From: a virus
Taxonomy: Duplodnaviria; Caudoviricetes
Reading direction: 5' to 3' (one strand)
DNA length: 64,000 nt
Virus record (IMG/VR): IMGVR_UViG_3300028549_000365
Span: 1 to 64,000 of that record
Part shown: in pieces, positions 28,251 to 62,148 of the stretch
Layout of the letters: every line of letters starts with the position of its first letter
Position numbering within the stretch: position 1 is the stretch's first letter
The notes under the pieces: generated by a model
Seen by the model: only the letters and a program-made list of their open reading frames with translations
Database searches by the model: none
What the model was told of the DNA's origin: nothing
Translations under genes and position numbers: made by a program

Positions 28251-28625
28251 ATGGTGTTTAGTAGTGTATTCGAATATAAAAATGGTAATATTTCGTTTTC
28301 AGAACTATTATTCGACAGTAAGCTTATTAGCGATTATAAAAAAGATAGACTTAATGATATAAATGAGTTATTACAACTTAAACAAAAGTTTAATGAGGTA
28401 GTTTTTATATGTAAGAATAAAAACTACATTATTAAAAAAGATGGAAACAGGTTAGGAAAAATAAAACATGCTTATTATTTAAATAAGTACTTTGACTATA
28501 TGCAGCTTATTAGCACACTTAATGTTAACGGATTTTACGGTTCTACTGGCTTTCCTACAAAGAATAAGTTTTCTAACCTAACATTAGTAACTAACACACT
28601 TGCTGAAAGAAGAGGTAAAAAATGA
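28251..28625 (+). CDS. hypothetical protein
   Basis: AAGGAG RBS. Confidence 0.7.
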   Translation: MVFSSVFEYKNGNISFSELLFDSKLISDYKKDRLNDINELLQLKQKFNEVVFICKNKNYIIKKDGNRLGKIKHAYYLNKYFDYMQLISTLNVNGFYGSTGFPTKNKFSNLTLVTNTLAERRGKK

Positions 28626-29005
28626 CAGAGAAAGAAGTATTAGAACTAATCATTATCTTTTGTATAGTGATACCTTTAGTAACGATAATTTGGTTTATAT
28701 TATTTAAGGACGACGGAGATGAGCATCACTATTGCGGTAACCTACCTAGTAAAAATAATGATGGTAATTTAGAAGGACCTAAAGTGATGACTAATAGATT
28801 CGGAGAAATCTGTGTAACTAGCGTTACTATTGAAGTACCGTGTCCTTTGTGTGGTTCCACTCGCGCTACTCTACTTCAACATAGTTCTGTAGCTAGTTGT
28901 CTTGGTCCAAATTATAGATTGAAATGTAATGTGTGTAGAATTGAGTTTAGAAAAACAGTTAAAGAAGTCGATGAATATAATAAAAATAATAAAGGAAGCA
29001 CATGA
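28622..29005 (+). CDS. membrane-anchored Zn-ribbon protein
   Basis: N-terminal TM (LIIIFCIVIPLVTIIWFILF) and CPLC...CNVC. Confidence 0.7.
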   Translation: MTEKEVLELIIIFCIVIPLVTIIWFILFKDDGDEHHYCGNLPSKNNDGNLEGPKVMTNRFGEICVTSVTIEVPCPLCGSTRATLLQHSSVASCLGPNYRLKCNVCRIEFRKTVKEVDEYNKNNKGST

Positions 29006-30557: not shown

Positions 30558-31025
30558 ATGATAGTATTAAAAACAAATGAAGAAGAAATAGTTAAAAATT
30601 ACCATACAGAGTATGCAAGGTTATTAAACAAAACAATAAAAATAGAACAATACAATGGGTTCACTGGAAGTAGATTACCTGATATAGCGGAAGATAACGC
30701 TACTGAATATAGCGAGTATGGTGTTGTTATAATTAAAGATATATGTAATTTTGCAGTTGGTTTGGGTTCAAAGACTAAAACAACATGTGAAGTAATATTA
30801 GTTACAGCTTTACTAACATACGAAGGGGTGTGTTATGATAAAGTAAAGTTTGTTTGCGCTGAACCATGTACTACTTCTGATAGTGATGAAGTAGTTTCTA
30901 ACATTCCTTACGGTATAGAAGTGTATTGTAATGAACACGACAGTATGAATATGAATATTAAATACAACAATTTTAAAGATATGTCAATATATGAAATAGC
31001 TGAATTATTGTATTACACGAAGTAA
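30558..31025 (+). CDS. hypothetical protein
   Basis: AAGGA RBS; last gene before the terminator. Confidence 0.7.
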   Translation: MIVLKTNEEEIVKNYHTEYARLLNKTIKIEQYNGFTGSRLPDIAEDNATEYSEYGVVIIKDICNFAVGLGSKTKTTCEVILVTALLTYEGVCYDKVKFVCAEPCTTSDSDEVVSNIPYGIEVYCNEHDSMNMNIKYNNFKDMSIYEIAELLYYTK

Positions 31026-31030
31026 CTAGT

Positions 31031-31066
31031 AAAGGTAGGCAACTTAGGTTGCTTATCTTTTTTTTT
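31031..31066 (+). terminator. intrinsic terminator
   Basis: AAAGGTAGGCAAC-ttag-GTTGCTTATCTTT (G-U pairs valid on the + transcript) plus T tract. Confidence 0.85.
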
Positions 31067-31093
31067 CTTTGAATACAAATATAAGGAGATACT

Positions 31094-31588
31094 ATGGCTA
31101 GTAGAAAAATAGAGGATTTACATCCTACCGCACAAGTTAAGTTTAATGCTTGGTTAAAAGATTGTGATGATGCAGGTATTGACGTACTTGTTTATTGTAC
31201 GTTTAGATCAAGTGCTGAGCAAGATAATGAATATAAAATAGGCAGAACTGTTAAAGGGTTAGGTGTTACAAAAGTCAATCCAATGGGTAGAACTACAACT
31301 AATGCAAAAGGTGGTGAGTCATTTCATCAGTATAGAGTTGCTATAGACTGTGTACCATTACAGAATGGTAAAGCTCTTTGGAATGGTGATTTACCTTCAA
31401 CACCACATGACGATAAACTATATGAGCAAATGGCTAAGTTAGGAGCTAAACACGGAATAGAGTGGTCTGGTAACTGGAAAGGTAAACTAAAAGAAAAAGC
31501 TCACTTTCAATATACAGAAGGTTTAACTATAAAAGATTTCAAAGCAGGTAAAACTTTATCTATAACAAGAGACACTAGAAATATGTAA
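31094..31588 (+). CDS. M15 family L-alanyl-D-glutamate peptidase (endolysin, CwlK/Ply118-like)
   Basis: SRKIEDLHP...TFRSSAEQ...TTNAKGGESFHQYRVAID...EWSGNW...AHFQ. Confidence 0.9.
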   Translation: MASRKIEDLHPTAQVKFNAWLKDCDDAGIDVLVYCTFRSSAEQDNEYKIGRTVKGLGVTKVNPMGRTTTNAKGGESFHQYRVAIDCVPLQNGKALWNGDLPSTPHDDKLYEQMAKLGAKHGIEWSGNWKGKLKEKAHFQYTEGLTIKDFKAGKTLSITRDTRNM

Positions 31589-31617
31589 CTACATATCCCA
31601 ATAGGGATATGTAGTTA
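31586..31617. terminator. bidirectional terminator containing both stop codons
   Basis: TAACTACATATCCC-aata-GGGATATGTAGTTA; TAA of the + gene at 31586 and TAA of the - gene at 31615-31617 form the stem ends. Confidence 0.85.
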
Positions 31618-32076
31618 TGCTACTCTTGTATATGACTTACCATCGTTAGTTGTATAAAACTCGTTTCTAGCTTTAGCTTTAGTTTCAGCTACAGATATAT
31701 GTATCCATCTTCTACTACCTATTTTCTCGATAATACATTTATCCAACATACCATTAAACATAGAAGTGTTATCTTTTATAATTTTAAATAACTCATCTAC
31801 ACTAACAGTAGGACATTGTATATCAGCTGCTAACCCTTTAGGGTGCGCTCCCGTGCTACTACCACCAACAGCTTTATTAAGACTAGGACCTCTAAAACCG
31901 CTAGTTACTTTTATTTCACCTCCTATTTTTTCTCTTAGTGGTTGTAATATATTAACGGCTAGTGATGTTAAATTATTAACAAACACCATACCCTCTTTTC
32001 TATTAATAGGTACTAAATTCTTATGTCCGTCAGAATCTGTTAATTCTTCAAATGTAAAATTTTTACTTAAGTTCAT
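31615..32076 (-). CDS. peptidase M15A family Zn-peptidase (second endolysin-like protein)
   Basis: MNLSKNFTFEEL...ILQPLRE...VTSGFRGPSLNKAVGGSSTGAHPKGLAADI...WIHIS; AAGGAG RBS before the ATG at 32076. Confidence 0.9.
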   Translation of the reverse strand: MNLSKNFTFEELTDSDGHKNLVPINRKEGMVFVNNLTSLAVNILQPLREKIGGEIKVTSGFRGPSLNKAVGGSSTGAHPKGLAADIQCPTVSVDELFKIIKDNTSMFNGMLDKCIIEKIGSRRWIHISVAETKAKARNEFYTTNDGKSYTRVA

Positions 32077-32165
32077 GTATCTCCTTTTATATGTTTTCAA
32101 ATATATGCTATGTCACCTATTTTTTTTAGGATTACTTGAATTATTTTAATATTAAGAGGTGGACA

Positions 32166-32594
32166 ATGCAAAGCATGAAAGATAAATTGGACGCTTTAAA
32201 AGAGGCGTTGTATAATAGTACAGAAAACACAGTAGATAGCGATTTTACTCGTTTAATAAAAATAAAAGATATAGACGACGAGCTATTTGAGACGCTTATA
32301 TTGATACACTCTAATTATAAAAACGAAATGCAGTCTGTGAAAAGACTTAATAGTAATACAATTACTAAACTTATAGATTTACAAATAGATATGTTGACAC
32401 ATTATAAATTAGTTTTAGCGGATGTAGACAACTTAAAAAATGGTAGTGTTAAAAACCAGTTATTAACACCTAAAAATATAGTTATAGTATTAACAACGCT
32501 AGGAATATTCATATCTGGTATATGGGTGTTGTTCGCTATAAACCCAGCTGCTGGTGATGCAGTAGTTAAAGTAATAACAAGTATATTTAAATAA
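32166..32594 (+). CDS. membrane protein, coiled-coil N-terminus and C-terminal TM (holin/anti-holin candidate)
   Basis: GAGGTGG RBS; IVIVLTTLGIFISGIWVLFAI hydrophobic helix; next to two endolysins; holin role is inference. Confidence 0.6.
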   Translation: MQSMKDKLDALKEALYNSTENTVDSDFTRLIKIKDIDDELFETLILIHSNYKNEMQSVKRLNSNTITKLIDLQIDMLTHYKLVLADVDNLKNGSVKNQLLTPKNIVIVLTTLGIFISGIWVLFAINPAAGDAVVKVITSIFK

Positions 32595-32603
32595 GGACAT
32601 AAA

Positions 32604-33260
32604 ATGATATTAAAGATTATAAAATTATATAACAAGATTTTAAGTTGGTTTTCAAAGCCTGAACCACAGCATCCAGAGATAAATACTTACACTCCTCCTA
32701 CTAGAACAAGAGAAGCTATAATAGATAGTATAGATTATACTAACATAAAAGAACCTGACATATATAAAGTTAATGATACTAATAAGACTCTATTATTTAT
32801 GGACGATATAGCTGAAAGTGAAATTCTGTATAAAGTAGATATAAGTAGAATGTTGAAGACTTATAAGAAGTCAGTACTTAATGATTTCACACTAGTGCAT
32901 TGTTTTGATAACACAGCGGGTTATATGGTATATAAGTATATACTAGCTGGAAACAATATAGACTATGCTATATTAGATGTTAGTTTAGGTTATAAATTAC
33001 AAGTATCTCAAACTGAGTCAGTAACTCTTGATGGTATAGACGTAGCTTTATTGTTACTTAAACATAATCCAGATGTAAAGTTCTTGTTTTCTACTGTACA
33101 TACTATGAATGAAAGAAATCCAGAAATGTCTGTTTACTATAAGAAGTTTAGAGCGGCTACTGGTAAATCACTTATGGATCATTATTTAGATAAGAACAGT
33201 TATAGACATGATAAACTATATACCTTTTTATACGGTGACGAAAATGAAACTAACAGTTAA
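32604..33260 (+). CDS. receiver-domain (response regulator/CheY-like) protein without output domain
   Basis: LLFMDD (acidic pair), IDYAILDVSL (phosphoacceptor Asp), DGIDVA, FLFST (switch Thr/Ser), HYLDK (conserved Lys). Confidence 0.8.
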   Translation: MILKIIKLYNKILSWFSKPEPQHPEINTYTPPTRTREAIIDSIDYTNIKEPDIYKVNDTNKTLLFMDDIAESEILYKVDISRMLKTYKKSVLNDFTLVHCFDNTAGYMVYKYILAGNNIDYAILDVSLGYKLQVSQTESVTLDGIDVALLLLKHNPDVKFLFSTVHTMNERNPEMSVYYKKFRAATGKSLMDHYLDKNSYRHDKLYTFLYGDENETNS

Positions 33261-34662
33261 CGTAAAACTACAGATACTTTTTAGTAAGTATAACCTTATA
33301 AAATACTTTTCAATGTTAATATCGTTCTACTTATTTTTCTTAGTTATCTACGCGGTAACTTTGATAAGTTTATATAGTGATGTGACAAATGATTATAATA
33401 CACGTTTAGCCACTATTGATAAGACTGAGGGTACAGAATTTAACCTTATGTGTAATGTTGTTTCTTGTAAGAGATTAACTTATAAGTTAGACGATAAAGG
33501 TAATATGTTAACATACGTTAATGATAACAATATACTTAAGGTAAGTGAGAATAAATTTCCTAAAGATAATATATATTTTGGTTTTGTAAACCAGAATTTA
33601 GAAACTGTTATACACTACGGAGATCTTACTTTTTATATAGATGACTTTAAATACATATCATTAGTATTTACATTACTAGTGATAACTAACTTCTTATTCA
33701 CAATAATATTTACATTAGTGTTTATAAAAACAGTATTAGACAGGTATCATAATGAACTTATAGAAAAGAATGTATATAAGGCAGACTTAGAAACTAAATT
33801 ACAGAGAGATATAACAGAAAGTATACACCATGAGATGGGGATGCCTATAGCTATAATAGATACTTTAGTAACAGACCTTTATGCTAATCTTTATAAATGT
33901 AAATACACAGATGACGGTGTATGTGACTTTAACAACGAAACTGTTGATAAGTCGCTCTGTAAAGACTGTCCGCTACATAGTAGAAAGAGAGAGACTGACA
34001 CCTTGGCTATAGAGTATTACTCTAGAATAAAAGCGTCTATAGTTAAACTTAATACTATACTCAATCTTATAGCTGGATCTAAGCATATAAAATATGGTAA
34101 CGGTAGTTACAGTGCGTATATGATAATAGAGAATGTGTTAGCTGGTATAAATAACTTTAGAGTTAGTAAAATAAAAGCTACTTACATTAATCAAGAACTT
34201 ATGCATAAATGCGCAGTAGGTGCACCTATGAATAATGGTGAACTGATGTTGGTTATTAACAACATTATAACTAATAGTATTGAAGCTGATACGCCTGAAA
34301 TGATCTTTGAAGCAAGTATGAACCCAGATGGTAGATTAGATATAATAGTTACAGATAAGGGTAGAGGTATCAGAGATGGTTTCGATAACATAATAGCTGA
34401 TGATATTATATTTAAATATGGATATAGTACTAAAGATAGTAAAGGTATACATATGGTGTCAAGCAGTATTATTCAGAAGATATTGTATAAGTTAGGGTTT
34501 AGTGTAGCTACTACCTCATCAAGAGGTTCAGGTTTATCTACTAACAAGGGTATGTTATTAAACTCAGGAGGCGACTTAGTGTTACTTTCAACATCGTATT
34601 TAGGAACAAGTTTTAAAATAACCATACCAACCAAGGAAAGAAGAAATGAACAAAAAACTTAG
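33244..34662 (+). CDS. membrane sensor histidine kinase
   Basis: Two TM helices flanking a ~90-aa periplasmic loop; H-box IHHEMGMP; N-box INNIITNSIEA; G1 VTDKGRGI; F-box IFKYGYSTK; G2 RGSGLS; C-terminal GTSFKITIP. Confidence 0.92.
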   Translation: MKLTVNVKLQILFSKYNLIKYFSMLISFYLFFLVIYAVTLISLYSDVTNDYNTRLATIDKTEGTEFNLMCNVVSCKRLTYKLDDKGNMLTYVNDNNILKVSENKFPKDNIYFGFVNQNLETVIHYGDLTFYIDDFKYISLVFTLLVITNFLFTIIFTLVFIKTVLDRYHNELIEKNVYKADLETKLQRDITESIHHEMGMPIAIIDTLVTDLYANLYKCKYTDDGVCDFNNETVDKSLCKDCPLHSRKRETDTLAIEYYSRIKASIVKLNTILNLIAGSKHIKYGNGSYSAYMIIENVLAGINNFRVSKIKATYINQELMHKCAVGAPMNNGELMLVINNIITNSIEADTPEMIFEASMNPDGRLDIIVTDKGRGIRDGFDNIIADDIIFKYGYSTKDSKGIHMVSSSIIQKILYKLGFSVATTSSRGSGLSTNKGMLLNSGGDLVLLSTSYLGTSFKITIPTKERRNEQKT

Positions 34663-34927
34663 TGTAATAGTTATTGTCGTTTTACTTAATATTAACGTAC
34701 TAATCGCTGATACACCATGCGGCGATTGTGTTACTATAGTAAAACATTTTGATCTAGATGTTACTATAAAGAACACATCTGGATGGAAGCGCGTTTGTAA
34801 TAACGGAAAAATAAAATTGTACACAAGTAAGAAGCTCGTAGGATCTGATTTAACAGATTTATGCGAGTGTATAACTAAAGAACAATTTAGAAGCAGAGCG
34901 ATTGAATCAACAAGGGTTATAAAATGA
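34646..34927 (+). CDS. small secreted Cys-rich protein
   Basis: Signal peptide MNKKLSVIVIVVLLNINVLIA; mature part has 5 Cys including CGDC; overlaps both neighbours. Confidence 0.75.
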   Translation: MNKKLSVIVIVVLLNINVLIADTPCGDCVTIVKHFDLDVTIKNTSGWKRVCNNGKIKLYTSKKLVGSDLTDLCECITKEQFRSRAIESTRVIK

Positions 34928-36120
34928 AACAAATTTGTATATTAATTATAATGATATTATGTAGCTTAAACCTTTATGGTGAAATAGCTACCAATATATC
35001 AGGGAACATAGAATACAGTAATATTAATACTGAAACAACTTATAACAACGGAGACTCTAAACAATATAACATAAATAGATTAGATACCACTGTTAATGTG
35101 GATACATATTTTGATAGTAGTAAGTTTGTCGTTAGCATCGGATATCTAGGTACAGATAGTGATGTTTATAATAATGTAGTACAAAAGGATATAACACCAC
35201 TTAAGGTGTTATATATAAATGAATTTTATTACACCACTAATATTTCGGAACACCTAACTGTATCTATTGGAGAGTTTACATTCAGAAAGGGTACGTTCTA
35301 TGAGCATAGTTATACTGGTGATAAGGTAGGTAATGGACTTTACAATATAATAGATGTTAATCTACAAGGTGGGTTAGTTAGCTGTATAACAGAGAATCAT
35401 GTTATAAGTATAGGTCGTATGTACTTTGATAAGTACGGTAAATCATTTTACGATTATGGTGAAGTTAACCCTGAACTATCTTACGATAGTTATAAAGGTA
35501 CAAATGTTGATATGCTTATACATAAATACAACAAAGATGAATTATACATAGAAACTAACATTTATGATATGGAACAGGTTGTAAACGGTTCACCTATTAT
35601 AAATACAAAAGCTTTAGGTGTTGGGATATCTTATGACAATACAGATAACAGTGGTATATTATATTATAGTATATTAACTAAAACAAAATCTACTGGTGAC
35701 ACTACTTCTTTATCACCTATATTTGTACCATATAAATCAGATAAGATACATTTCGATAAGTTTAGATCAAATGGTTACAGTTATTTGTTAGGTGTAAAAA
35801 AAGAATTAGATAATGTAATCTACGGAAAAGACATGACAATAGGATTTACATATACAGATAGAAGTAAAGGTTATCATAGTTTATTAGCTGGTTCACCTAT
35901 GTCACCTATGTCATATAGTGATGTCGGTAAATTCTACAATGTAAATACAGGATTAAAACTTAATAAAGATACTGTTATTAACTTAATGTATAGTAGACAT
36001 GACACAACTGGTATAAATAATAAGCTAGGTCTAAGTACTTTAACCTATGAAACAGGTAATTTACCTAATGGCGTGTCGCACAATGACAGTCTGATTGTTC
36101 AATTTTATATGAATTTTTAA
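34924..36120 (+). CDS. putative outer-membrane beta-barrel (porin-like)
   Basis: Signal peptide, alternating Tyr/Gly-rich beta strands, C-terminal beta-signal LIVQFYMNF. Confidence 0.7.
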   Translation: MKQICILIIMILCSLNLYGEIATNISGNIEYSNINTETTYNNGDSKQYNINRLDTTVNVDTYFDSSKFVVSIGYLGTDSDVYNNVVQKDITPLKVLYINEFYYTTNISEHLTVSIGEFTFRKGTFYEHSYTGDKVGNGLYNIIDVNLQGGLVSCITENHVISIGRMYFDKYGKSFYDYGEVNPELSYDSYKGTNVDMLIHKYNKDELYIETNIYDMEQVVNGSPIINTKALGVGISYDNTDNSGILYYSILTKTKSTGDTTSLSPIFVPYKSDKIHFDKFRSNGYSYLLGVKKELDNVIYGKDMTIGFTYTDRSKGYHSLLAGSPMSPMSYSDVGKFYNVNTGLKLNKDTVINLMYSRHDTTGINNKLGLSTLTYETGNLPNGVSHNDSLIVQFYMNF

Positions 36121-36122
36121 TA

Positions 36123-36156
36123 GTATAACACATAAGGGTTACCTTATGTGTTATAC
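36123..36156 (+). terminator. hairpin terminator closing the signalling operon
   Basis: GTATAACACATAAGG-gtta-CCTTATGTGTTATAC, 15-bp stem. Confidence 0.75.
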
Positions 36157-36188
36157 CCTTATTTACTGATTAATCATAAAGGAAGAAT

Positions 36189-36689
36189 ATGGAAAATATA
36201 AAACATTACGAAATAGCTAATTGTGTTAGTGTACCTGTTACACTAGCGTTTCTAAAAGTAGATGCATCAAAGAGTGTGTATGGTAAACTTATAAGCTGGT
36301 GGACTAAGTCTGAGTTTGTACACGTAGAGATTATAATAGGGGATATGTGGATTAGTTCAGTAGAGGGAACTGGTGTGCATATTAAACAACTTAAGCCGTT
36401 GAAAGATACTTATGTGTATCATAAACTAAGAGACGCTGTTATGACAGAGTCACAATACTTGGATATAAAAGAATGGATATGCCAACAAGAGAACGCTAAA
36501 TACGACAATACAGGTATAGTGTTATCACAAATTATACCTATTAGATACGACAGTAGAACTAAATGGTTCTGCTCTGAAATAGTAACTAAAATATTACAGT
36601 TGCTGGGGTACAAAGAGGTATTTAATTTATTACCGCATTTAATAGATCCAGGTTTTTTAACAAGATTATTTAAAGTAGTAAAGGAGTAA
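36189..36689 (+). CDS. permuted papain-like amidase (YiiX/NlpC-P60 superfamily)
   Basis: KLISWWTKSEFVHVEI (His) ... AKYD ... KWFCSEIV (Cys after His, permuted order). Confidence 0.8.
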   Translation: MENIKHYEIANCVSVPVTLAFLKVDASKSVYGKLISWWTKSEFVHVEIIIGDMWISSVEGTGVHIKQLKPLKDTYVYHKLRDAVMTESQYLDIKEWICQQENAKYDNTGIVLSQIIPIRYDSRTKWFCSEIVTKILQLLGYKEVFNLLPHLIDPGFLTRLFKVVKE

Positions 36690-36693
36690 CACT

Positions 36694-37875
36694 ATGAACG
36701 AAGAACAAATGAATATAAAACTAGACAGTCTAATATTAACATTAGAAGATAAAGAAAATAAGTTATTAAATTTGAATAAAATAAACTTACTTATAGGGGA
36801 TAATACTAACTTACAATACGACGCTAGCGTAATTGATAATGTTGAATTAAGTAAAGAGCACTTAGTAGGTATATACGGAGAACTTAATAAGTTAGGGTAT
36901 AACTTAGAAGATGATACTCTATATCATATGTCTACTGAAAGTTATGATAGTATATCTGCTGAAGATCTAGACGGTGAGAGAAAGAGTCTTATAGCTAGAG
37001 TAGACAGGTATATACGAAACGTAATAGGCGATATTACATCTATAGGTGATGATTTAGACTCTATAATGAAACTTATGAAAACAGTTAAGACTGATAAGCT
37101 AACTAAATTACTTAATGATCTAAATAGTGGAGTTTATAAAGAATCTAAGGATAAGATAACTAACCCAGCTATAAATAGCGACTTAGCGTTCTATTTTGTA
37201 AACGGACACACTGATATAGAACTAAACTCTTTAAAAGAGCTGTGTTCTACAGCTAGTGACTTGTTACTTAAAGATAAGCTGTTTGATGTTATGACTAAAT
37301 ATGCTTATGATAATTTGATTGTTGGTACAGACGTAGAAGATGAGATACCTACACATCAAGCTTCTGTTAAACATTTAGATAAAATAACATTACCAGAAGT
37401 AAGAGATTGGTTAAATAAGAATACTAAATTTGGTATTTACAATAGATACATAGGTAACAAATTTAGAATACTTAGTGTGTATCAAGATGAAGATGGTGCT
37501 GATGTTAGATTTGACACATATAATATTCCTAAAAACTATTACTTCGGTAAGACATTATCTCCGTTAACACTAGAAGAGTGTAAGCAACTTGTTAAAGAAG
37601 GTATAGATTTAGCTAACGATAGTGCGACTATGGCTGCTGTTGGTAGAGTTAATGCATTTGATACGTTCTGGAAGAGTGTTAGAAGTAAAATAGGTACTAT
37701 GGTATCAACGCATTTATTTAATATGTTTGCAGTTAAGAGATGGTTTAGACAAATTAACATGGGTAATGTATATTCGACAGGTACATACACAGTTCTAATA
37801 GGGCTAAAGAAATCACATATTGATATGTTAGATATGATACACAACATAGTTATAGCTAGTACTAAAGGAAAGTAA
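36694..37875 (+). CDS. phiKZ-like virion head protein (proteolytically processed)
   Basis: Acidic N-terminal region with MSTESYDSISAEDL, containing S-x-E sites like those cut by phiKZ head protease; family inferred. Confidence 0.55.
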   Translation: MNEEQMNIKLDSLILTLEDKENKLLNLNKINLLIGDNTNLQYDASVIDNVELSKEHLVGIYGELNKLGYNLEDDTLYHMSTESYDSISAEDLDGERKSLIARVDRYIRNVIGDITSIGDDLDSIMKLMKTVKTDKLTKLLNDLNSGVYKESKDKITNPAINSDLAFYFVNGHTDIELNSLKELCSTASDLLLKDKLFDVMTKYAYDNLIVGTDVEDEIPTHQASVKHLDKITLPEVRDWLNKNTKFGIYNRYIGNKFRILSVYQDEDGADVRFDTYNIPKNYYFGKTLSPLTLEECKQLVKEGIDLANDSATMAAVGRVNAFDTFWKSVRSKIGTMVSTHLFNMFAVKRWFRQINMGNVYSTGTYTVLIGLKKSHIDMLDMIHNIVIASTKGK

Positions 37876-38609
37876 TGAAAACTATAATATTATTTGTGAT
37901 GGTATTAGCATTAAATGCTTTTGCTAATAAATTAGATAAACTTCAAGAGCGTAACGACATAATAAAAGCTAGTTATAAGTCTGTTAGTGATAACGCGGAA
38001 CACACAGATACTTGGTTAGGGTATGTTAGATATGGTAAAGATGTTATTATTAAAGATACTAAATTATTTATCATACCGACATTCGATGGTAAGTACGAGA
38101 AACGTAATAATGTTCAAGTCAATGACAAGTATGATATTAGTCTATTATTAGAATGCGATATACCTAATTCTATAACAGGCTACTATTTAAAAGGTAGTTA
38201 TATTGTGGACGAAGCTAATAAGATATACAGTAAAACAAAAACAGGTATAGGTATGTACCAGTATTTATATAGATCTGATAGAGTGTTGCTAAAGACACGT
38301 GAAGGCGTACAATATAGTGACACAAGTTACACTATCGATAAAGATAGTGTAAATGTAGCTTATATTAAGTTTGGTTTATTGTCTGGTTATTATTATGCTA
38401 ACAATATATTTATAAAGGCTAAAGCTGATTATGATTTAAGTGTTAAAAATAAAGATGACATAATAGATACCTTAGTTAGTGCGGAGTACTCCATTAACGA
38501 TAAAGTTAGTATAGAAACATCTTATAGTTACCTTTATACAAAAACACCTATAACTAATCTACAGCACACACAAAGAGTTTTTACAACATACTTAATATAC
38601 AAGTTTTAA
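37875..38609 (+). CDS. DUF481-like outer-membrane beta-barrel protein
   Basis: Signal peptide MKTIILFVMVLALNAFA; ~245 aa; C-terminal SIETSYSYLY...P...FTTYLIYKF beta-signal. Confidence 0.65.
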   Translation: MKTIILFVMVLALNAFANKLDKLQERNDIIKASYKSVSDNAEHTDTWLGYVRYGKDVIIKDTKLFIIPTFDGKYEKRNNVQVNDKYDISLLLECDIPNSITGYYLKGSYIVDEANKIYSKTKTGIGMYQYLYRSDRVLLKTREGVQYSDTSYTIDKDSVNVAYIKFGLLSGYYYANNIFIKAKADYDLSVKNKDDIIDTLVSAEYSINDKVSIETSYSYLYTKTPITNLQHTQRVFTTYLIYKF

Positions 38610-38628
38610 ATTAGTATAAGGATAACGC

Positions 38629-39129
38629 ATGGCACAGTCTTTTCTAACTGACGGTAAAAATATAGAAACAGTAAATACAATTAGTTCAACATCTAGTGCA
38701 ACAGACCCATATAATATATTTGCATTAAGGTTGTTAAAATCTACTAACAACTTTCCATTATGTATAGCTACAGGTACGTGTAGTGAAATAGCTTTACCTG
38801 AAACACCAAATGTACCACAGCCTCCAGTAGATCCTAATGAAGGAAATGGTGTTGATGGGTTCTCTTTAAGACAACAGTTATTTAAAGTAAACTTTAACAC
38901 AATATATAGTAACACTTCTAATTTACCAACACATACAGACACTAGTGATAAGAGATACTTAATACGTGAAGTGTATCTTCCAGATGGAAAGCAAATAGAT
39001 ATTACTATAGATATGAAAACTAAAGGTTTAATAGTTACTACTATAACAGGTGACACAGGCTTCGATAGACCTTTAATAAAAACTACTACTTATGAGAAAA
39101 ATAAATTTATAAAAACAGTTTATAGTTAA
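38629..39129 (+). CDS. hypothetical protein
   Basis: AAGGA RBS. Confidence 0.7.
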   Translation: MAQSFLTDGKNIETVNTISSTSSATDPYNIFALRLLKSTNNFPLCIATGTCSEIALPETPNVPQPPVDPNEGNGVDGFSLRQQLFKVNFNTIYSNTSNLPTHTDTSDKRYLIREVYLPDGKQIDITIDMKTKGLIVTTITGDTGFDRPLIKTTTYEKNKFIKTVYS

Positions 39130-39138
39130 GGATATAAC

Positions 39139-39477
39139 ATGTGTAAAACACCACAAGAAGAACTAGAAGAGTTCTCAGAAGAGATAGCTAAAATACTAGC
39201 TAAAGACCTTAGAAGAAAGAATACTATTTTAATGATTATCTTTGTTATACTATTTATTATGTCCATAATACTAACATACTTTATAAGTAACTTTTCTGTA
39301 AGAATAACACACTTAGAAGATAGTAAAAAAGAAGTAATAAATAATGACGGGATAAGATTAGAGCTAGATAAGTTTGAAGTAACTAAACTAGTTAAAGATA
39401 AAGGTGGTACTACTATATGGTATAGAAATATCACTATTGATAAATCAGAATATTATACAGTACGTATGAAAATATAA
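39139..39477 (+). CDS. single-pass membrane protein
   Basis: ILMIIFVILFIMSIILTYFI helix. Confidence 0.7.
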   Translation: MCKTPQEELEEFSEEIAKILAKDLRRKNTILMIIFVILFIMSIILTYFISNFSVRITHLEDSKKEVINNDGIRLELDKFEVTKLVKDKGGTTIWYRNITIDKSEYYTVRMKI

Positions 39478-39497
39478 ATAAAATATAAAGGCAAAAA

Positions 39498-40562
39498 ATG
39501 GCATATGTTACAAGTGAACAATTACAACTAGAGTTAGAAAACCTAGCCCACGAACTCGGTATAAGCGTACAGGAACTTTTACAAGCTTATACTACTAAAA
39601 CTTATGTAGACGGTGAATTAGCTGCTATTAAGTTAGACATTCAAAAGATTACTGAAGTAGGTGAACTTGATACAGAATCTTTAGCTGAAAAAATTATAGC
39701 TATTAACCAAACTATTGGTACTACTGCTGATGAAGTAGTTAAATCACTTTTTGAAAGAATAGCTGAAAACAAAGTTGCTGTACAAGCAGTTGCTTCTGAT
39801 TTAGCTGGATACAAAGTTCAAGTTGCTACTGAGCAAGCTGCTCAAGACCAAGCTATAAATAATGCAGTTATTACAGTTAATGCTTTAGGTAATACTGTAG
39901 TTGCAAACAAAACAGCTCAAGATGCTATTAACTCTGACATTGAAGGTAGAGTAGCTAGTAATGAGAGTTCTATTACTAAACTTAATGGTGACGACACTGT
40001 AGTTGGGTCAGTAGCTAAACAAGTTAAAGATGCTATAGGAGCTGAAGCACTAAGAGCTAAAACTGTTGAAGGTGACTTAGGTACATTAACAACTGATTCT
40101 AAAGTTAGTTTAGCTGCTGCTATTAACGAAGTAGACGCTAATGCTGATGCTGCTAAAGCTGCAGCTGACGCTGCTTTACTATTAGCACAAGAAGCTAGTT
40201 CTGCAAACTCTACTTTAGGTCAAAATATTACTGACTTAACTAGTAGAGTAGTTACTCTTGAAGCTGAGAAAGTTAGAGTATCTGATATCTTAGATAATAA
40301 AGTTGTTAATGGTGAAGTTGTTAAAGGTGCAGTTACTAGAATCGCTGATTTAGAAGCTGGCCTAATAGCTAACCAAGCAGACCAAGACGCTAAAGATTTA
40401 GCTACTAACGCTAAGATTGATGCTATCGCTGGTTCTGGATTAGTAACGGGTGTCATTTGTGGTAAGAAAGCCGCAAATAAATTCAGACTAGTATTTGGAC
40501 AAGCACTTATTGCTGAGTGTGACGCTGCACCTGTTGGCGGTGGAGATAATGGTGGTTTATAA
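39498..40562 (+). CDS. Ala-rich coiled-coil fibre-like virion protein
   Basis: GDLGTLTTDSKVSLAAAINEV motif typical of phage fibre proteins; heptad-rich; codon usage like the capsid gene. Confidence 0.65.
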   Translation: MAYVTSEQLQLELENLAHELGISVQELLQAYTTKTYVDGELAAIKLDIQKITEVGELDTESLAEKIIAINQTIGTTADEVVKSLFERIAENKVAVQAVASDLAGYKVQVATEQAAQDQAINNAVITVNALGNTVVANKTAQDAINSDIEGRVASNESSITKLNGDDTVVGSVAKQVKDAIGAEALRAKTVEGDLGTLTTDSKVSLAAAINEVDANADAAKAAADAALLLAQEASSANSTLGQNITDLTSRVVTLEAEKVRVSDILDNKVVNGEVVKGAVTRIADLEAGLIANQADQDAKDLATNAKIDAIAGSGLVTGVICGKKAANKFRLVFGQALIAECDAAPVGGGDNGGL

Positions 40563-52746: not shown

Positions 52747-53229
52747 TTATTTTAAAATATTATTTTGTCTAATATACTCTAGTAATGAATTACATTCTAA
52801 ACTATGTATATAACCTTTTGTCTTATTGCGTAGATAATTAATAACGTACTTTGTTTTATGTGGAAGAAAGCAATTTGTACAATCGCAATGTACTTTAACA
52901 ACATTATTAATATCTGGATTCTCGTAGTATATATCTTTAAATTTAGAATTTATACCACATACGCTAGCTATACCGATTTTCTTATCAATAATAATATCAT
53001 TATTAATAATAAAGTGCGGGCATGCACAAAGTAAACAATTTAAATCATCTACATTATGACATTTTATATTGTCTTTGTATAAAGGACAGAAACTAGTTTC
53101 GTTAGTCTTCATATTTTCATAATCAAAATAACTAGCTATTTCTTCTGGTGTAGTAAACTTACTACCTAGTTTAGATAGTATACTGTTTACTTTCTCGTCA
53201 TGATCTTTTATCCACTCATCATATGTCAT
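52747..53229 (-). CDS. cysteine-rich small domain (zf-like) protein
   Basis: FCPLYKDNIKCHNVDDLNCLLCACPHF...CGINS...DCTNCFLPH; ATGA-coupled to nrdJ. Confidence 0.7.
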   Translation of the reverse strand: MTYDEWIKDHDEKVNSILSKLGSKFTTPEEIASYFDYENMKTNETSFCPLYKDNIKCHNVDDLNCLLCACPHFIINNDIIIDKKIGIASVCGINSKFKDIYYENPDINNVVKVHCDCTNCFLPHKTKYVINYLRNKTKGYIHSLECNSLLEYIRQNNILK

Positions 53230-56108
53230 ATTACAGGACAGCTACCACCGGTACACTCTAGTGATTCCATAACATTATCTTTACTATCTTTAATATTTGT
53301 TAACTTAACTGGTTTTACATTCTTAGCATAAGCTTCAAACACCTCTTTAGTAACAACTTCTTGCGGTAAGTACAAGTATCCTAAATCAGCTGCTGTTTTA
53401 GAAGGATCTGCTCTATATAAAAATGACACACCAACATAGTGTTCCCAGTTAGCTAATAACCAATCTACTATATCATCTACTTCATCTGGACTATAACTTA
53501 TAGTGTTAGATACGTTCTGTTGACACCAATGTACTTGGTACTTCTTATAACGTTCTAATTGTGTAATAGCAGACTCTAAGTTAACCTCTACAACATCTCC
53601 ATTATCTTTTACTACTTTATCAAACTCTACGTGTTCCCATTTGATAGGAAATTTAACAAGTGTGCCTTCATTAGGTTGCATAGGATTAGGAGTTACCTCA
53701 TATCCTGACGCTCTAAGAATAGGCAATATAGGATCATTTACACCAAAGTTAATGTTGTTGAATATGTATTTACCTAATGGTTTATGTACACCTTCTGTTG
53801 TCATCATTACTTTACTTAATGTACCAGACGGTTTTATTGTTGTTACATTCTTAGGTCTTTGTAAGCCTAACTCATCAGCCATACCGTAAGCACTATGAAT
53901 AGCAACACGTTTCATACTATCAAGATCGTATTCTGTTAAATCTTCTCTTTGAACAACACCAGTTATACCAACACCGCATAATCTTAAGAACTCATTATTA
54001 AGATGCCACGCTTCTTGTAACACACCATCTTTAAGATTAACACAAGTTTGTCTATAGTTAGCTCTAGCAGAAAGTTCTATTGCTCTATGCAGTCCTGTTG
54101 TATCCCCTCTAAACTTAGCTACATCAACTTCTACAAGATTACAGAAACCTTTATTAGGTAATAAGATTTCAACGCATGGGTTATTTGTTTTAAACCAAGG
54201 TGCTCTTTTCTTAGCTGTTTCACCATTAATAAAACCTGGTTCACTACCGCCAGCTTCTTCCATAATAGTAAATATCTTTCTAAGCTCTTCTCTAGAAGGT
54301 TTACTTTCAAATACTAAACTATTGTTACTTTGTGCTCGCTGTGGATTACCATTCCAATATTCTCTTTTAGCGGTACTAAACTCTTTCCATTCTGGTTGTC
54401 CGTATTCGAATAAAGCAATCTGTGCCGATCTTCTAGAAGACAGAATAGTTCCTAACCAATTCACTATATCTAATATATCCATTCTTGTAAGTAATTCACC
54501 AGCTCGTTTATTCATTATAGTAGCTATTGCAACATACGCAATACTTATAGCTTCATCACCAGATGATATCCAACCATATCCAGTTAATCTACTACCAGCT
54601 GGTCGTAACTCCGAGAAATCGAATACTAACTTTTCTGCATCGTATTTACCAGCTAATAACTTACCTATACTTTTAGACCAAGCTTCAGCTGAGTCACCTA
54701 CTTTAATAGTCCATACACCATCTACAAATGTTTCTACGTTATTAGGATTACCTCCTTTAGTAGTTCGTTTAGTTCGTATTACTTCTATGTCCTTGATAGG
54801 TTTAAAGAATCCGTTTAGTGTACCTATAACAGGTCTAAACCCTACTCCGCAACCTTGCATCAATAACCAAAGAACATCAACTACGTCATACACAGTTTCT
54901 ACATCTGTTCCAGAACAGTTTCCTGTTACTAAACCATTAGGTAATATAAAACTATGATCGTCTTCAACAGTAAGACACCAACATTCTTCTTTAGGTGTGT
55001 TCTTATTTATATCATTAATTCTAAATAAACTACCTCCGGTATTCTCCTGAAATGTTGTAAACCGAATAGTAAAACCGTCAAATACCCCGTAATTTGTTTC
55101 AGCTATTCTTCTTTCATATCTATTTATATATACACCAAAAACTGGCATCCATTTAACTATGTAATCAGCTGCTTGTTTACTGGTAGTATCAATTCCAATA
55201 ACTACATTAACTCCCTTTCTATGGGTCTTAGTTCCGTCCGCTGATAGATAACCTCTTAAAAAAGCTCTGTTGAGATTAATATTATCAGTTTCAGGTAAAG
55301 TTTTTAAATATTTACCTGTATATACAAATGGGTCTTCATTACAACTAGGTGGAAATGAATATTTAAACCCGCATGATATAAATTTATCTAAATGTTGTTT
55401 TTTATTACCACATAATCTAACACGCGAAGTTACACTTTCACCGCTCACAGCTATAGCACCATCACCATACACAAACCCATAACACCACCAATATTGTTCC
55501 TCAGTTGTCATACCATAGAAATCATAATGATTGAAATCATCAGAAGGTGGTCTATGCATTTTCATATCTAGCTTTATGTCTTTAGCTAAAACTTTATTAC
55601 CGTTAGACTCTATCCAGGTGTGATCTAAACAACTATTAACGCTGTACTGTGTAATACCTCTAGTTAAACCTAATTTAACCATATTTCTATTTCCTGCATA
55701 CATGACCTTAGCTTTTTTCCAGTTACCTAAATGTGTTCTTACTATACATTCATCACCATCTTCAAAGTCTTCAAATGACATAACGCCTTTATTAGTTATA
55801 AACTTAGTATCTCTTTGTAATGGATTAAATTGTGAAGCTTCTCTTGTTTTAGCGATATCAGTACCACCTAGCCAAAGTGTTCTTCCTGAAGTAGAAACTT
55901 TCTTATCCACCATAAGTTGTTTAAATTCATTAAGCTCTTCTACCATATCAACAGTACAATGTTCTATTTTAGCAGCTCTTAACCATAACCATTCTTGATG
56001 GGTTCTTACTCTTTCACATATCTCTTCCCAAGTCTCAAAACTAGTCTCGTTTATATCTTTAGGTCTTGAGTATGTTCTTCTTATTACTACTTCACTTCGT
56101 GTATTCAT
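53226..56108 (-). CDS. nrdJ: class II (adenosylcobalamin-dependent) ribonucleoside-triphosphate reductase, intein-containing
   Basis: SGRTLWLGG...SQFN|CS, GCGVGF, TNNPCVEILL...CNLVE (thiyl-radical Cys), TTIKPSGT, C-terminal CTGGSCPV. Confidence 0.93.
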   Translation of the reverse strand: MNTRSEVVIRRTYSRPKDINETSFETWEEICERVRTHQEWLWLRAAKIEHCTVDMVEELNEFKQLMVDKKVSTSGRTLWLGGTDIAKTREASQFNPLQRDTKFITNKGVMSFEDFEDGDECIVRTHLGNWKKAKVMYAGNRNMVKLGLTRGITQYSVNSCLDHTWIESNGNKVLAKDIKLDMKMHRPPSDDFNHYDFYGMTTEEQYWWCYGFVYGDGAIAVSGESVTSRVRLCGNKKQHLDKFISCGFKYSFPPSCNEDPFVYTGKYLKTLPETDNINLNRAFLRGYLSADGTKTHRKGVNVVIGIDTTSKQAADYIVKWMPVFGVYINRYERRIAETNYGVFDGFTIRFTTFQENTGGSLFRINDINKNTPKEECWCLTVEDDHSFILPNGLVTGNCSGTDVETVYDVVDVLWLLMQGCGVGFRPVIGTLNGFFKPIKDIEVIRTKRTTKGGNPNNVETFVDGVWTIKVGDSAEAWSKSIGKLLAGKYDAEKLVFDFSELRPAGSRLTGYGWISSGDEAISIAYVAIATIMNKRAGELLTRMDILDIVNWLGTILSSRRSAQIALFEYGQPEWKEFSTAKREYWNGNPQRAQSNNSLVFESKPSREELRKIFTIMEEAGGSEPGFINGETAKKRAPWFKTNNPCVEILLPNKGFCNLVEVDVAKFRGDTTGLHRAIELSARANYRQTCVNLKDGVLQEAWHLNNEFLRLCGVGITGVVQREDLTEYDLDSMKRVAIHSAYGMADELGLQRPKNVTTIKPSGTLSKVMMTTEGVHKPLGKYIFNNINFGVNDPILPILRASGYEVTPNPMQPNEGTLVKFPIKWEHVEFDKVVKDNGDVVEVNLESAITQLERYKKYQVHWCQQNVSNTISYSPDEVDDIVDWLLANWEHYVGVSFLYRADPSKTAADLGYLYLPQEVVTKEVFEAYAKNVKPVKLTNIKDSKDNVMESLECTGGSCPVI
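54918..55823 (-). mobile_element. 302-aa intein with LAGLIDADG homing endonuclease (class 3 signature)
   Basis: Interrupts SQFN|CSG; begins PLQRDTKFIT, ends WCLTVEDDHSFILPNGLVTGN; LAGLIDADG blocks YGFVYGDG and LRGYLSADG. Confidence 0.9.
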
Positions 56109-59982: not shown

Positions 59983-62148
59983 ATGGCAGGACAAAAAAAA
60001 TTAATTGGTTCGCTATTATCTAGCTTACAATCAAACATTGGTAAAGATGGTCTAAACAATAGACAAGAGATAACAGCGTACACTATGTCGTCAGAATCAT
60101 TGGATCAAATTTCTAAAGATTCAGCTGTTGCATCTAGAGATCTTTTAGAAGCAACTATCGATAGAACTATCGGACTTTTAATAGGTACTGAAGAATTCAA
60201 AGGTGTTAAATTCTCTGTTGCACAATTAACTGCTGCTAAATCAATTGCTGCTTTAGCTATAGACCCACAAACAGGATTAAACTCGTTAAAAGCATTGAAA
60301 GACCCTAGTGTATCAGGTGATTCAATTAGCGTCAGCGCTGAGCAATTTGTAGGTGATACAATTATTGACGCATCTACACTTTCTGTTGAAACTTTTGATG
60401 GGCAAGCTGCATCTAATGCACTATACCTTTCAATTGCTACAACATTGCTATCTACTACTCAAGATACATTCGGAGAAGCATTCTGGCCAACAATGGTTAT
60501 TGACCCTATGGTTAGTGGTATTGCTATTGAAACTGAATTCACATCGTTGTTTACAACTTTCGAAAGAAGTAGATCAGGTACTCAAGATAAAAAGAAATTT
60601 AACAAACAATCACTTGTAAAAGTTATTTACGATAATGATCTTTTTACAGCTGATAGAAATAAAGTTGTTGTAGTTAAAGCTCCTGAAAATGAAAATTCAT
60701 TAATGGCTGGTTATACATATATTGATAAAACTGCTGGTGTCGAAATTGAAACTGCTCCATTACTATTCGGTAAAAATGTTTCTCTTTTAGGTCTTTCTCA
60801 AACTGATGCATTATTAGCTAAAGGTGTTATGGACGAAACTGATACATTAGATAGAACTATTAACCTTGACAGAGTATTCTATACATTATCACATGTAGAT
60901 AACGGTAACACTGTTAACGAAATATTTAGTTTTGATGCATCGTTGTTCCCATATAGTAACTTTACTTCTTCTGTACAACAACATGCGAAAGATTTCACAT
61001 TATCATTTGAAACTGAATCAGTTATCATTAACACATCTGCTACTAAAACTGTTTTAGGTGAAGTTTCTGGTGCTTTAGATGGTCTTGCTGATAACCATTC
61101 TATTAGATTAGAGTTCAAATTATCTGGTAAAGCTAACGCTGCATATGGTGATGTTGAAGTATTCGGAAATGCAATTAACTTAGTAGAAGTTATTGATGCT
61201 GCTGGTAATAAATTAGCTACTACAAGTGCTACTTATATCGCAATCAAAGCTGTTATTGATACTATTAAATTCGGTGGTTATACACTTGAAGCTTATAGAA
61301 CTAACAGTAACTTAAGAACTGCTGGAGATATGATTACATCTGATAGATACTCACAAGTTTATGCTGTACCACTTAGAACTGGTGTAACTGTTACTACTCC
61401 TATTAACAATGTTTTAGGAACAGATAACGATAGTAAATTAACTTCACAAATCCAAATGATTGGTATGAGAGTTAGTAAACACGCTGTTCAAGAACTTGTT
61501 AAAACTGCTGAAGTACTTAAAAGTGTTACAATCAGTGGAGTAAGCAATGTAGAACTTATGGGAATCGGAAGATTCTTCGTAGATACATTCTATCAAGAAT
61601 CATCAATTGATCTTGCTAACTATGTTGATAGTATCTCTTCTAACCAAAGAGCGGAAGATATTAAAGCAGCTCTAGTTAACAAAGTTAAAGATGAAGTTCT
61701 TAAAATGTACTTGCTTTCTAACTATGGTATTGCATTCGAAGCACTTAACCAAGGTTTAGGTAAAAAGATTACAGTTGTTATCGGTACTAACCCAAGATTA
61801 AGACAATACTTAACTGCAGGTGATGGTATCATCAACATCGGTGATGATTTTGAAGTTAAAGTAGTTAGTACACCTAACAAACTTATCTCTGATAAAATGT
61901 ATATCACTTTCTGTATCTTCGACGAAGATAGAAATGTTAAACCAAACCCACTTAACTTCGGTCAATGTGTATGGGCTCCAACAATTACTTATGATGTAAA
62001 CAGAACAGTTAACAACTCAACAGTAAGAGCTATTCATACTATGCCAAGATATGCACATATTCTTAACTTGCCAATTATGTCAGTTATCAATGTAAGCGAC
62101 ATCGAAGGTGTATTAGGAAAAGTAAAAGTTTATACTCACGAAGCATAA
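59983..62148 (+). CDS. major capsid protein (phiKZ gp120-like)
   Basis: 721 aa, highly biased codon usage, propeptide with S-x-E sites (MSSESL, LSVETFDG), FGEAFWPTMVIDP, C-terminal PRYAHILNLPI; syntenic with DnaB and nvRNAP. Confidence 0.85.
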   Translation: MAGQKKLIGSLLSSLQSNIGKDGLNNRQEITAYTMSSESLDQISKDSAVASRDLLEATIDRTIGLLIGTEEFKGVKFSVAQLTAAKSIAALAIDPQTGLNSLKALKDPSVSGDSISVSAEQFVGDTIIDASTLSVETFDGQAASNALYLSIATTLLSTTQDTFGEAFWPTMVIDPMVSGIAIETEFTSLFTTFERSRSGTQDKKKFNKQSLVKVIYDNDLFTADRNKVVVVKAPENENSLMAGYTYIDKTAGVEIETAPLLFGKNVSLLGLSQTDALLAKGVMDETDTLDRTINLDRVFYTLSHVDNGNTVNEIFSFDASLFPYSNFTSSVQQHAKDFTLSFETESVIINTSATKTVLGEVSGALDGLADNHSIRLEFKLSGKANAAYGDVEVFGNAINLVEVIDAAGNKLATTSATYIAIKAVIDTIKFGGYTLEAYRTNSNLRTAGDMITSDRYSQVYAVPLRTGVTVTTPINNVLGTDNDSKLTSQIQMIGMRVSKHAVQELVKTAEVLKSVTISGVSNVELMGIGRFFVDTFYQESSIDLANYVDSISSNQRAEDIKAALVNKVKDEVLKMYLLSNYGIAFEALNQGLGKKITVVIGTNPRLRQYLTAGDGIINIGDDFEVKVVSTPNKLISDKMYITFCIFDEDRNVKPNPLNFGQCVWAPTITYDVNRTVNNSTVRAIHTMPRYAHILNLPIMSVINVSDIEGVLGKVKVYTHEA

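Follow-up and report, generated by a model that had tools for sequence, protein, structure and literature searches.

A two-component gene cassette of jumbo phages, its membrane partner and a possible role in lysis timing

The operon and its proteins

We analysed a 64,000-nucleotide stretch of viral DNA (the window), which is the first 64 kb of a linear IMG/VR record of 222,081 bp with a guanine plus cytosine (GC) content of about 30% (IMGVR_UViG_3300028549_000365). Near its centre lies a gene cassette that encodes a receiver protein and a membrane histidine kinase. Its five plus-strand open reading frames, g1 to g5, span positions 32166-36120, are tightly coupled and are furnished with ribosome-binding sites. 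The first gene, g1 (32166-32594), is preceded by a strong ribosome-binding site (AAGAGGTGG) and encodes a predicted tail-anchored coiled-coil membrane protein of 142 residues with a transmembrane segment. The stand-alone receiver gene g2 (32604-33260, 218 residues) begins 9 nucleotides past g1, and the kinase gene g3 (33244-34662, 472 residues) overlaps g2 by 17 nucleotides; for g3 we took the start codon used in its database entry (P0001, 472 residues). A 17-nucleotide overlap also joins g3 to g4 (34646-34927), which encodes a small, putatively secreted protein of 93 residues, and an ATGA overlap joins g4 to g5 (34924-36120), which encodes a porin-like outer-membrane barrel of 398 residues. 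The operon is closed by a terminator-like hairpin at 36123-36156 on the same strand, with a 15-bp stem and a 4-nucleotide loop (folding z = -5.8 against shuffled sequences).

The closing hairpin recurs in related loci. A strong hairpin lies 3' of g5 in eight of nine five-gene relatives and 3' of the kinase gene in three of the four three-gene relatives tested. Since the terminal hairpin sits past g5, or past the kinase gene where g4 and g5 are absent, the g4-g5 extension appears to lie inside the same transcription unit as the core. Judged by the start/stop overlaps and by the hairpin kept past the last gene in relatives, g1 to g5 are one operon. Each gene is single-copy in the source genome, and the GC content of the operon (28-30%) matches that of the remaining window. 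Upstream of g1 several relatives (L010, L015, L016, L019, L025, L029 and others; related loci carry L numbers throughout) have the hairpin of the preceding gene, a T-run and a TGATTAA-like motif, the last about 25-35 nucleotides before the g1 start codon; the equivalent region of the window is 32101-32165. We considered this motif as a promoter and dropped it, as its enrichment in the non-coding DNA of the source genome is only about 2-fold. An Rfam scan of window positions 30900-39500 gave no RNA family.

The g3 protein has transmembrane segments at residues 17-48 and 135-166. Pfam HATPase_c matches it with 28.5 bits against a cut-off of 26.4, and HisKA was not detected at default thresholds. 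An alignment of 26 homologues shows invariant residues in the H-box (H196, E197 and P201), the N-box (N344, E347 and A348), the G1 box (D371, G373 and G375) and the G2 box (G428 and G430), a nearly invariant F-box region and two invariant periplasmic cysteines, C70 and C75. Searched against the PDB, the g3 profile matches only histidine kinases, CheA and MutL-type GHKL proteins, and it aligns to FixL box by box, the H-box included. The AlphaFold model, with a predicted local distance difference test score (pLDDT) of 80, has sensor kinases as its top Foldseek matches without exception. In the model the first transmembrane segment is followed by a small alpha/beta periplasmic domain of about 85 residues (about 49-134) and by the second transmembrane segment, which runs on into the DHp helix without a HAMP domain; His196 lies in this long helix, and a loop (217-249), the second DHp helix and the CA domain follow. 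Sequence and models together show that g3 is a membrane histidine kinase of the dimer type; its periplasmic sensor domain is small and its catalytic core complete.

The loop at the tip of the DHp hairpin carries four cysteines, C219, C227, C239 and C242, spaced C-x7-C-x11-C-x2-C (window 33898-33969). This insert is kept in most homologues and missing in the most distant clades, and it may bind a metal or an iron-sulphur cluster. To our knowledge it has no equivalent among described kinases.

The g2 protein consists of an N-terminal arm of about 55 residues and a receiver fold with an extra beta-hairpin between beta3 and alpha3, past the phospho-Asp strand, and has no output domain. Its active-site pocket is formed by D67, D68, D125, T164 and K197 (D-D-D-T-K). 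D67, D68, D125, H166 and K197 never vary among 16 sequences taken from the loci (alignment A6), and at least 90% of these have T164. In a broader alignment of 61 sequences (A2), D68 alone is invariant, at least 90% of the sequences share D67, D125, H166 and K197, and T164 falls outside this set. Pfam Response_reg was not detected with the single g2 sequence at default thresholds; all PDB matches of the g2 profile are response regulators, CheY and Spo0F among them (E about 2e-4), and the AlphaFold model (pLDDT 93.6) has only receiver domains as top Foldseek matches in the PDB and the AlphaFold DB. Sequence and models thus show that g2 is a single-domain receiver whose phospho-acceptor pocket is complete. 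The hydrophobic moment of its N-terminal helix exceeds that of shuffled controls in about half of the homologues, which is suggestive, and only that, of an amphipathic membrane tether. As far as sequences and structural models can be made to tell, g2-g3 is a two-component system by every testable criterion.

The g1 protein has an N-terminal cytoplasmic helical or coiled-coil domain of about 100 residues, one transmembrane segment (about 103-127) and a short periplasmic tail, in which a motif with a nearly invariant Ala is conserved (alignment A3, 17 sequences). Searches with its family against Pfam, PHROGs, NCBIfam, PADLOC, the ESM Atlas and PDB profiles gave nothing informative. A complex prediction of g2 with residues 1-105 of g1 gave 0.01 where the mark is 0.32, a result that speaks neither for nor against binding. 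We regard g1 as a candidate output or partner of the receiver, holin- or antiholin-like. The possibility that g1 is a histidine phosphotransfer protein was rejected because the His of its LILLHSNYK motif is not invariant: L003 has Tyr in its place, and L008 and L026 have Glu.

The g4 protein has a hydrophobic, signal-like N-terminus, a mature length of about 70 residues and five cysteines, and its gene is translationally coupled to both the kinase gene and the barrel gene. C28 and C75 are invariant (alignment A4). In L010 both C51 and C73 are replaced, and L033 has lost this pair too. Because C51 and C73 are replaced as a pair while C28 and C75 are invariant, we infer a periplasmic protein with two disulfides, C28-C75 and C51-C73. 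The same set of family searches as for g1 was uninformative for g4. The g5 protein likewise starts with a signal-like hydrophobic segment and ends in a Phe that is invariant among its homologues, of which there are 15, several on contigs of 130-235 kb. Neither Pfam nor NCBIfam assigns it to a family. In the ESM Atlas it scores 0.97 for porin features, with a structural template-modelling (TM) score of 0.79 to the DUF3373 porin-like family, and the Atlas model reaches TM scores of 0.64-0.68 to OprB and Porin_4. With a signal peptide, a barrel fold and a C-terminal aromatic residue, the modelled protein has the features of a porin-like barrel. A second outer-membrane barrel, of the DUF481 (YdiY-like) family, is encoded on the plus strand at window 37875-38609 (52.7 bits); it has a signal-like N-terminus and ends in Tyr-Lys-Phe, and a pattern scan of prokaryote genomes found no bacterial relative of it.

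These results agree with an initial annotation of the stretch, which had described five co-directional, mostly overlapping genes closed by a terminator and phage-like in AT content, encoding an intact membrane histidine kinase with a periplasmic loop, a receiver with all phosphorylation residues, a secreted Cys-rich protein and an outer-membrane beta-barrel. The same annotation called g1 a holin-like membrane protein; the membrane protein is borne out, and the holin-like label is less secure, resting on a sub-threshold match (Phage_holin_5_2, the best holin match, E = 0.024, 15.3 bits against a cut-off of 29.2).

Source phage and relatives of the cassette

The window encodes a phiKZ-type major capsid protein (PhiKZ_MCP, PF25620) at 59983-62148 (E = 6.8e-126), and a chimallin (PF25677) is encoded at genome positions 131173-133041 (61.5 bits against a cut-off of 27). 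As both proteins are encoded, the phage is probably a phiKZ-like, nucleus-forming jumbo phage. The single sequencing run that holds window DNA is a microbial-mat metagenome, probably the source sample.

Homologues of the kinase (n = 46) share 26-47% identity with it, and many lie on contigs of 60-250 kb. An exhaustive search gave 182 representatives of the receiver family after clustering at 50% identity; the most distant of these, P0196, also precedes a kinase of the same family. Wherever a locus has enough DNA upstream, g1, g2 and g3 come in this order, which holds for at least 20 jumbo-phage loci (tested in L002, L003, L005, L008-L011, L015, L016, L019, L020 and L025-L033), with g1 always the first gene of the cassette. 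One locus, L032, has an extra membrane protein between receiver and kinase. On this evidence g1, g2 and g3 are always co-inherited in a fixed order.

The distribution of the family appears to be confined to phages. In a scan of one genome per species over 185,579 prokaryote species, the kinase query gave generic ATPase-domain matches only and no relatives, and the barrel (g5) and receiver queries found nothing. Among the cultured phages of INPHARED, DNA and protein searches gave no match to the cassette, the kinase or the receiver. A search of IMG/VR with a single sequence found nothing, and one with alignments found six further viral contigs. The PADLOC models, which cover defence systems with kinase-receiver pairs such as Detocs, match neither g2 nor g3. 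The contigs of relatives reach 250 kb, and Pfam families of phiKZ capsid, sheath and tube proteins occur among the genes beside the cassette. The absence of prokaryote relatives, the phage-type contigs, the conserved order and the single-copy genes together argue that the cassette is not a recent bacterial insert. A recent bacterial origin had been named initially as the finding that would undo the idea of a phage-built system, and the distribution contradicts it, so that this idea holds up.

The initial annotation had also asked for a conserved five-gene order in other jumbo phages, and this is found in part: g1-g2-g3 is universal, and g4 and g5 occur in about half. Both follow the kinase gene in the window locus and in L002, L003, L010, L021, L025, L027, L029, L030 and L033; L015 and L016, whose contigs are cut, have g4; and both are absent from L005, L008, L009, L019, L026, L028, L031 and L032. 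Because the carriers are scattered over several deep lineages of the kinase tree, which is unrooted and has long branches, the pattern suggests that g4-g5 is an old extension that has been repeatedly lost.

In many relatives the cassette comes after homologues of the genes at 194763-198308 of the source genome, and its genomic places differ. Parts of a diversity-generating retroelement (a reverse transcriptase, bAvd and a DUF4376 target-type protein) lie within a few kb of the cassette in L025 (11497-13310) and L028 (7388-9796).

Lysis-type genes beside the cassette

Divergent from g1 across a 65-nucleotide spacer lies a minus-strand gene for an M15_3 peptidoglycan peptidase of endolysin type (31615-32100; Peptidase_M15_3, E = 6.7e-14; PHROG endolysin, E = 1.8e-34). 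A second endolysin-type gene, for an M15_4/VanY-type peptidoglycan peptidase according to Pfam and PHROG, occupies 31094-31588 on the plus strand and ends 578 nucleotides upstream of g1. The operon had been placed beforehand as divergent from one endolysin and about 600 nucleotides from another, and these distances bear that out. It is unusual for two different M15 peptidoglycan peptidases to adjoin each other; the two convergent genes share a hairpin (31586-31617) that is terminator-like on the minus strand.

On the other side, just past the operon terminator, g6 (36189-36689, plus strand) encodes a YaeF-like permuted papain-fold enzyme (NCBIfam NF008552, E = 5e-8, below the cut-off; PHROG 1128, E = 2.3e-27). 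In L008 and L026, both of which lack g4 and g5, a homologue of g6 directly follows the kinase gene, and in L030 a g6-like gene lies upstream of the cassette. Hence g6 may belong functionally with the cassette.

The flanks initially taken from relatives contained none of the M15 genes of the window. Lysis-type neighbours are nevertheless found in several relatives. An M15_3 peptidase gene lies directly upstream of g1 in L031 (E = 1.4e-10), and an M15_4 peptidase gene two genes upstream of the g1-like gene in L032 (29.4 bits). An SLT transglycosylase gene is divergent from g1 in L008 and L026 (20.3 and 22.0 bits, respectively, against a cut-off of 21.3), and in L011 an inner-membrane spanin gene and an overlapping lipoprotein spanin gene lie directly upstream of g1. 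In L010 and L029 this place is taken by a gene for a protein of about 95 residues with a hydrophobic core. The link to lysis genes drawn in the initial annotation is thus not peculiar to the source phage, since M15_3, M15_4, SLT, spanin and YaeF-like neighbours occur in relatives.

In total a lysis-type neighbour is recognisable in about 6 of 15 lineages and comes from four unrelated protein families. As a jumbo phage has a handful of lysis-type genes among about 250-300, such recurrence is unlikely to be due to chance, in a judgement made without phylogenetic correction. In most lineages without a lysis neighbour the cassette lies past a 674-residue protein and helicase pair and a protein of 140-180 residues; the latter, found upstream of g1 in eight relatives, matches nothing in the PDB or Pfam and lacks invariant residues of catalytic type.

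The source phage has no recognisable holin near its endolysins. Its spanin pair, an inner-membrane coiled-coil protein and an overlapping lipoprotein gene, is encoded elsewhere on the minus strand (genome 122374-123058; L037 2275-2959), adjoining dUTPase and nuclease genes, with no holin or endolysin beside it. A 127-residue protein encoded on the plus strand at window 28622-29005, 3 kb upstream of the endolysins, has an N-terminal transmembrane segment and a Cys-rich C-terminal half with CxxC pairs; it could be another membrane player in lysis.

Proposed function, alternatives and known systems

We consider it highly probable that the kinase and receiver of the cassette are a phage-specific pair whose membrane partner is fixed. 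The fuller reading, which we rate at about even, is that of a phage two-component operon in which the receiver, having no output domain, acts on g1 in the membrane and so sets endolysin access and lysis timing. Here a periplasmic or envelope cue would alter the kinase activity of g3, and in five-gene versions g4 and g5 would perhaps deliver or modulate the cue. His196 of g3 would phosphorylate Asp125 of g2, a transfer supported indirectly by the strict adjacency of the two genes in every locus. Since g2 has no DNA-binding output and the phage DNA is expected to lie inside a protein nucleus, g2 would work at the membrane through contact with a protein, and its likeliest target would be the cytoplasmic domain of g1. 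The most likely output would be the time at which the membrane opens to endolysin, that is, lysis timing or lysis inhibition by phosphorylation, because the cassette repeatedly adjoins hydrolases, spanins and a YaeF-like enzyme and no recognisable holin lies near the endolysins. The initial annotation had proposed a sensing chain of barrel, periplasmic partner, kinase and receiver; of this the kinase and receiver stand at the core, the third core partner is g1, which had been a side item, and g4 and g5 become accessory.

A more specific proposal, which we put forward tentatively and think may well be wrong, is a phosphorylation-gated lysis clock in nucleus-forming jumbo phages, in which phospho-g2 would flip g1 between a holin-blocking and a holin-active state. 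Its cue could be superinfection, envelope damage, the redox state read through the invariant C70/C75 pair, or a diffusible signal made by the phage that enters through the g5 porin and is bound by g4.

Several observations speak against the fuller reading. The g1 protein has no significant holin match, and its large cytoplasmic domain is atypical for holins. About 9 of the 15 lineages have no recognisable lysis gene within a few genes of the cassette. The M15 genes of the window locus, L031 and L032 may be of shared ancestry, so that the independent M15 associations are perhaps fewer than three. The g4 and g5 genes are missing in about half of the lineages, and are therefore accessory and not essential to the core function. 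None of the RNA sequencing runs searched for window DNA holds it.

The scarcity of lysis neighbours fits an explanation through host takeover, which we hold to be unlikely though worth retaining: the pair would read the envelope and the free receiver would act on host targets, for example motility, proteolysis adaptors or host kinases (the last by serving as a phosphate sink), and not on lysis, g1 being only a kinase accessory like SafA, MzrA or LiaF. Single-domain receivers such as CheY, DivK and CpdR do act on many kinds of protein target, and the conserved motif in the short periplasmic tail of g1 would suit a kinase co-sensor. However, unrelated lysis-type families recur beside the cassette in deep lineages, and the strict co-inheritance of g1 and receiver fits a dedicated phage partner as well. 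If g4 and g5 are instead placed at the centre, the operon could serve superinfection exclusion or envelope remodelling. The two proteins would alter the outer membrane or periplasm so as to block phage entry or change uptake, and kinase and receiver would regulate or report on the remodelling. Both proteins are predicted to be exported and are encoded in the same operon, the DUF481 barrel is encoded 1.7 kb downstream, and phage-encoded outer-membrane proteins and lipoproteins that block receptors exist, T5 Llp being an example. Yet g1-g2-g3 persists in the half or so of lineages from which g4 and g5 are missing, and the receiver has no DNA-binding output by which to control expression, so that we find this explanation improbable.

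Phages are known to carry kinase or regulator genes of host origin, for example the agr genes agrB/D/C in phiCDHM1 (PMC3901668) and phoR/phoB as auxiliary genes of soil phages (PMC10987575). The cassette might by analogy be a recently captured bacterial operon (a moron) without a role in infection, or a decayed pseudo-system. This we regard as scarcely credible given that no bacterial relatives of kinase, receiver or barrel were found, that the base composition matches the phage, that the family is broad (182 receiver clusters) with its catalytic residues kept, and that the gene order holds across the whole span of kinase identities.

Among cellular systems the closest likeness is to CheA-CheY, KinA-Spo0F, DivJ/PleC-DivK and CpdR, which share a GHKL kinase with an H-box His and a D-D-D-T-K receiver without output domain, and for which output by protein contact is likewise expected. 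Unlike these, g2-g3 is carried by a lytic, probably nucleus-forming jumbo phage, is absent from the prokaryote genomes searched and is always linked to a tail-anchored membrane protein; g2 has in addition its N-terminal arm and extra hairpin, and neither Response_reg nor HisKA matches the pair at default thresholds. The small exported protein encoded beside a membrane kinase with a periplasmic sensor recalls RcsF-IgaA-RcsCDB, CpxP-CpxA, QseG-QseE (PMC6075780) and DbfQ-DbfS (PMC12714742), and in Rcs the signal path reaches the outer membrane, as proposed here with g5. However, g4 and g5 have no sequence or fold relation to the proteins of these systems, and in contrast to the envelope stress systems the outer-membrane component would be a dedicated porin-like barrel in the same operon.

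With the T4 RI antiholin and T holin and the N4 gp62/gp63 pinholin system (PMC12642591) the cassette shares its place beside endolysin-type genes and the proposed signal-dependent delay or trigger of lysis, and N4 gp63 resembles g1 in its N-in, single-transmembrane, C-out topology and cytoplasmic regulatory region. Lysis inhibition in T4 and N4 relies on proteins without homology to those of the cassette (PMC12642591), and in T4 periplasmic sensing works through protein binding, without phosphorylation.

Kinases or receiver domains are also carried by other viruses, as in the agr and phoR/phoB genes, the hybrid kinases of phaeoviruses and giant viruses that appear among our BFVD matches, and cREC, a divergent jumbo-phage receiver that is linked to NAD/ADP-ribose enzymes and explicitly never to histidine kinases (PMC7824862). 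The identification of g2 as cREC was rejected, as a kinase always follows g2 whereas cREC never occurs with one. These are host-derived single genes, hybrid kinases of eukaryotic viruses and a kinase-free receiver, whereas g2-g3 is a complete pair in a phage-only family of its own with fixed partners. In the literature, of which our coverage was incomplete, we found no dedicated kinase-receiver operon in chimallin phages and no receiver domain in a lysis cassette. What is new in the cassette is its carrier, its fixed partners, the outer-envelope extension and the likely output.

Sensing by two-component systems is regarded as a cellular trait. The present kinase-receiver pair is complete, has a membrane partner and often a periplasmic protein and an outer-membrane channel as well, and forms a long-lived family found only on phage-type contigs, in a clade of uncultured, AT-rich, phiKZ-like jumbo phages that encode chimallin. 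If its output is lysis, these phages would time the burst of the cell by reading the envelope through phosphorylation, unlike T4 lysis inhibition and arbitrium. A phage with its DNA sealed in a protein nucleus would then answer outside conditions through a membrane protein switch instead of a DNA-binding regulator. We know of no lysis system that uses a His-Asp phosphotransfer pair, and the proposed clock, if true, would be the first known His-Asp phosphorelay over phage lysis and a new route by which phages sense the outside world. E. coli could serve to test the cassette proteins, which are small, in place of the native host.

Two further genes of the source phage were noted in passing. The gene for the large subunit of ribonucleotide reductase (window 53226-56108, minus strand) is split by a LAGLIDADG domain and resembles an intein or homing endonuclease insertion. 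A sigma-70 region 4 protein is encoded outside the window, at genome positions 125178-125789.

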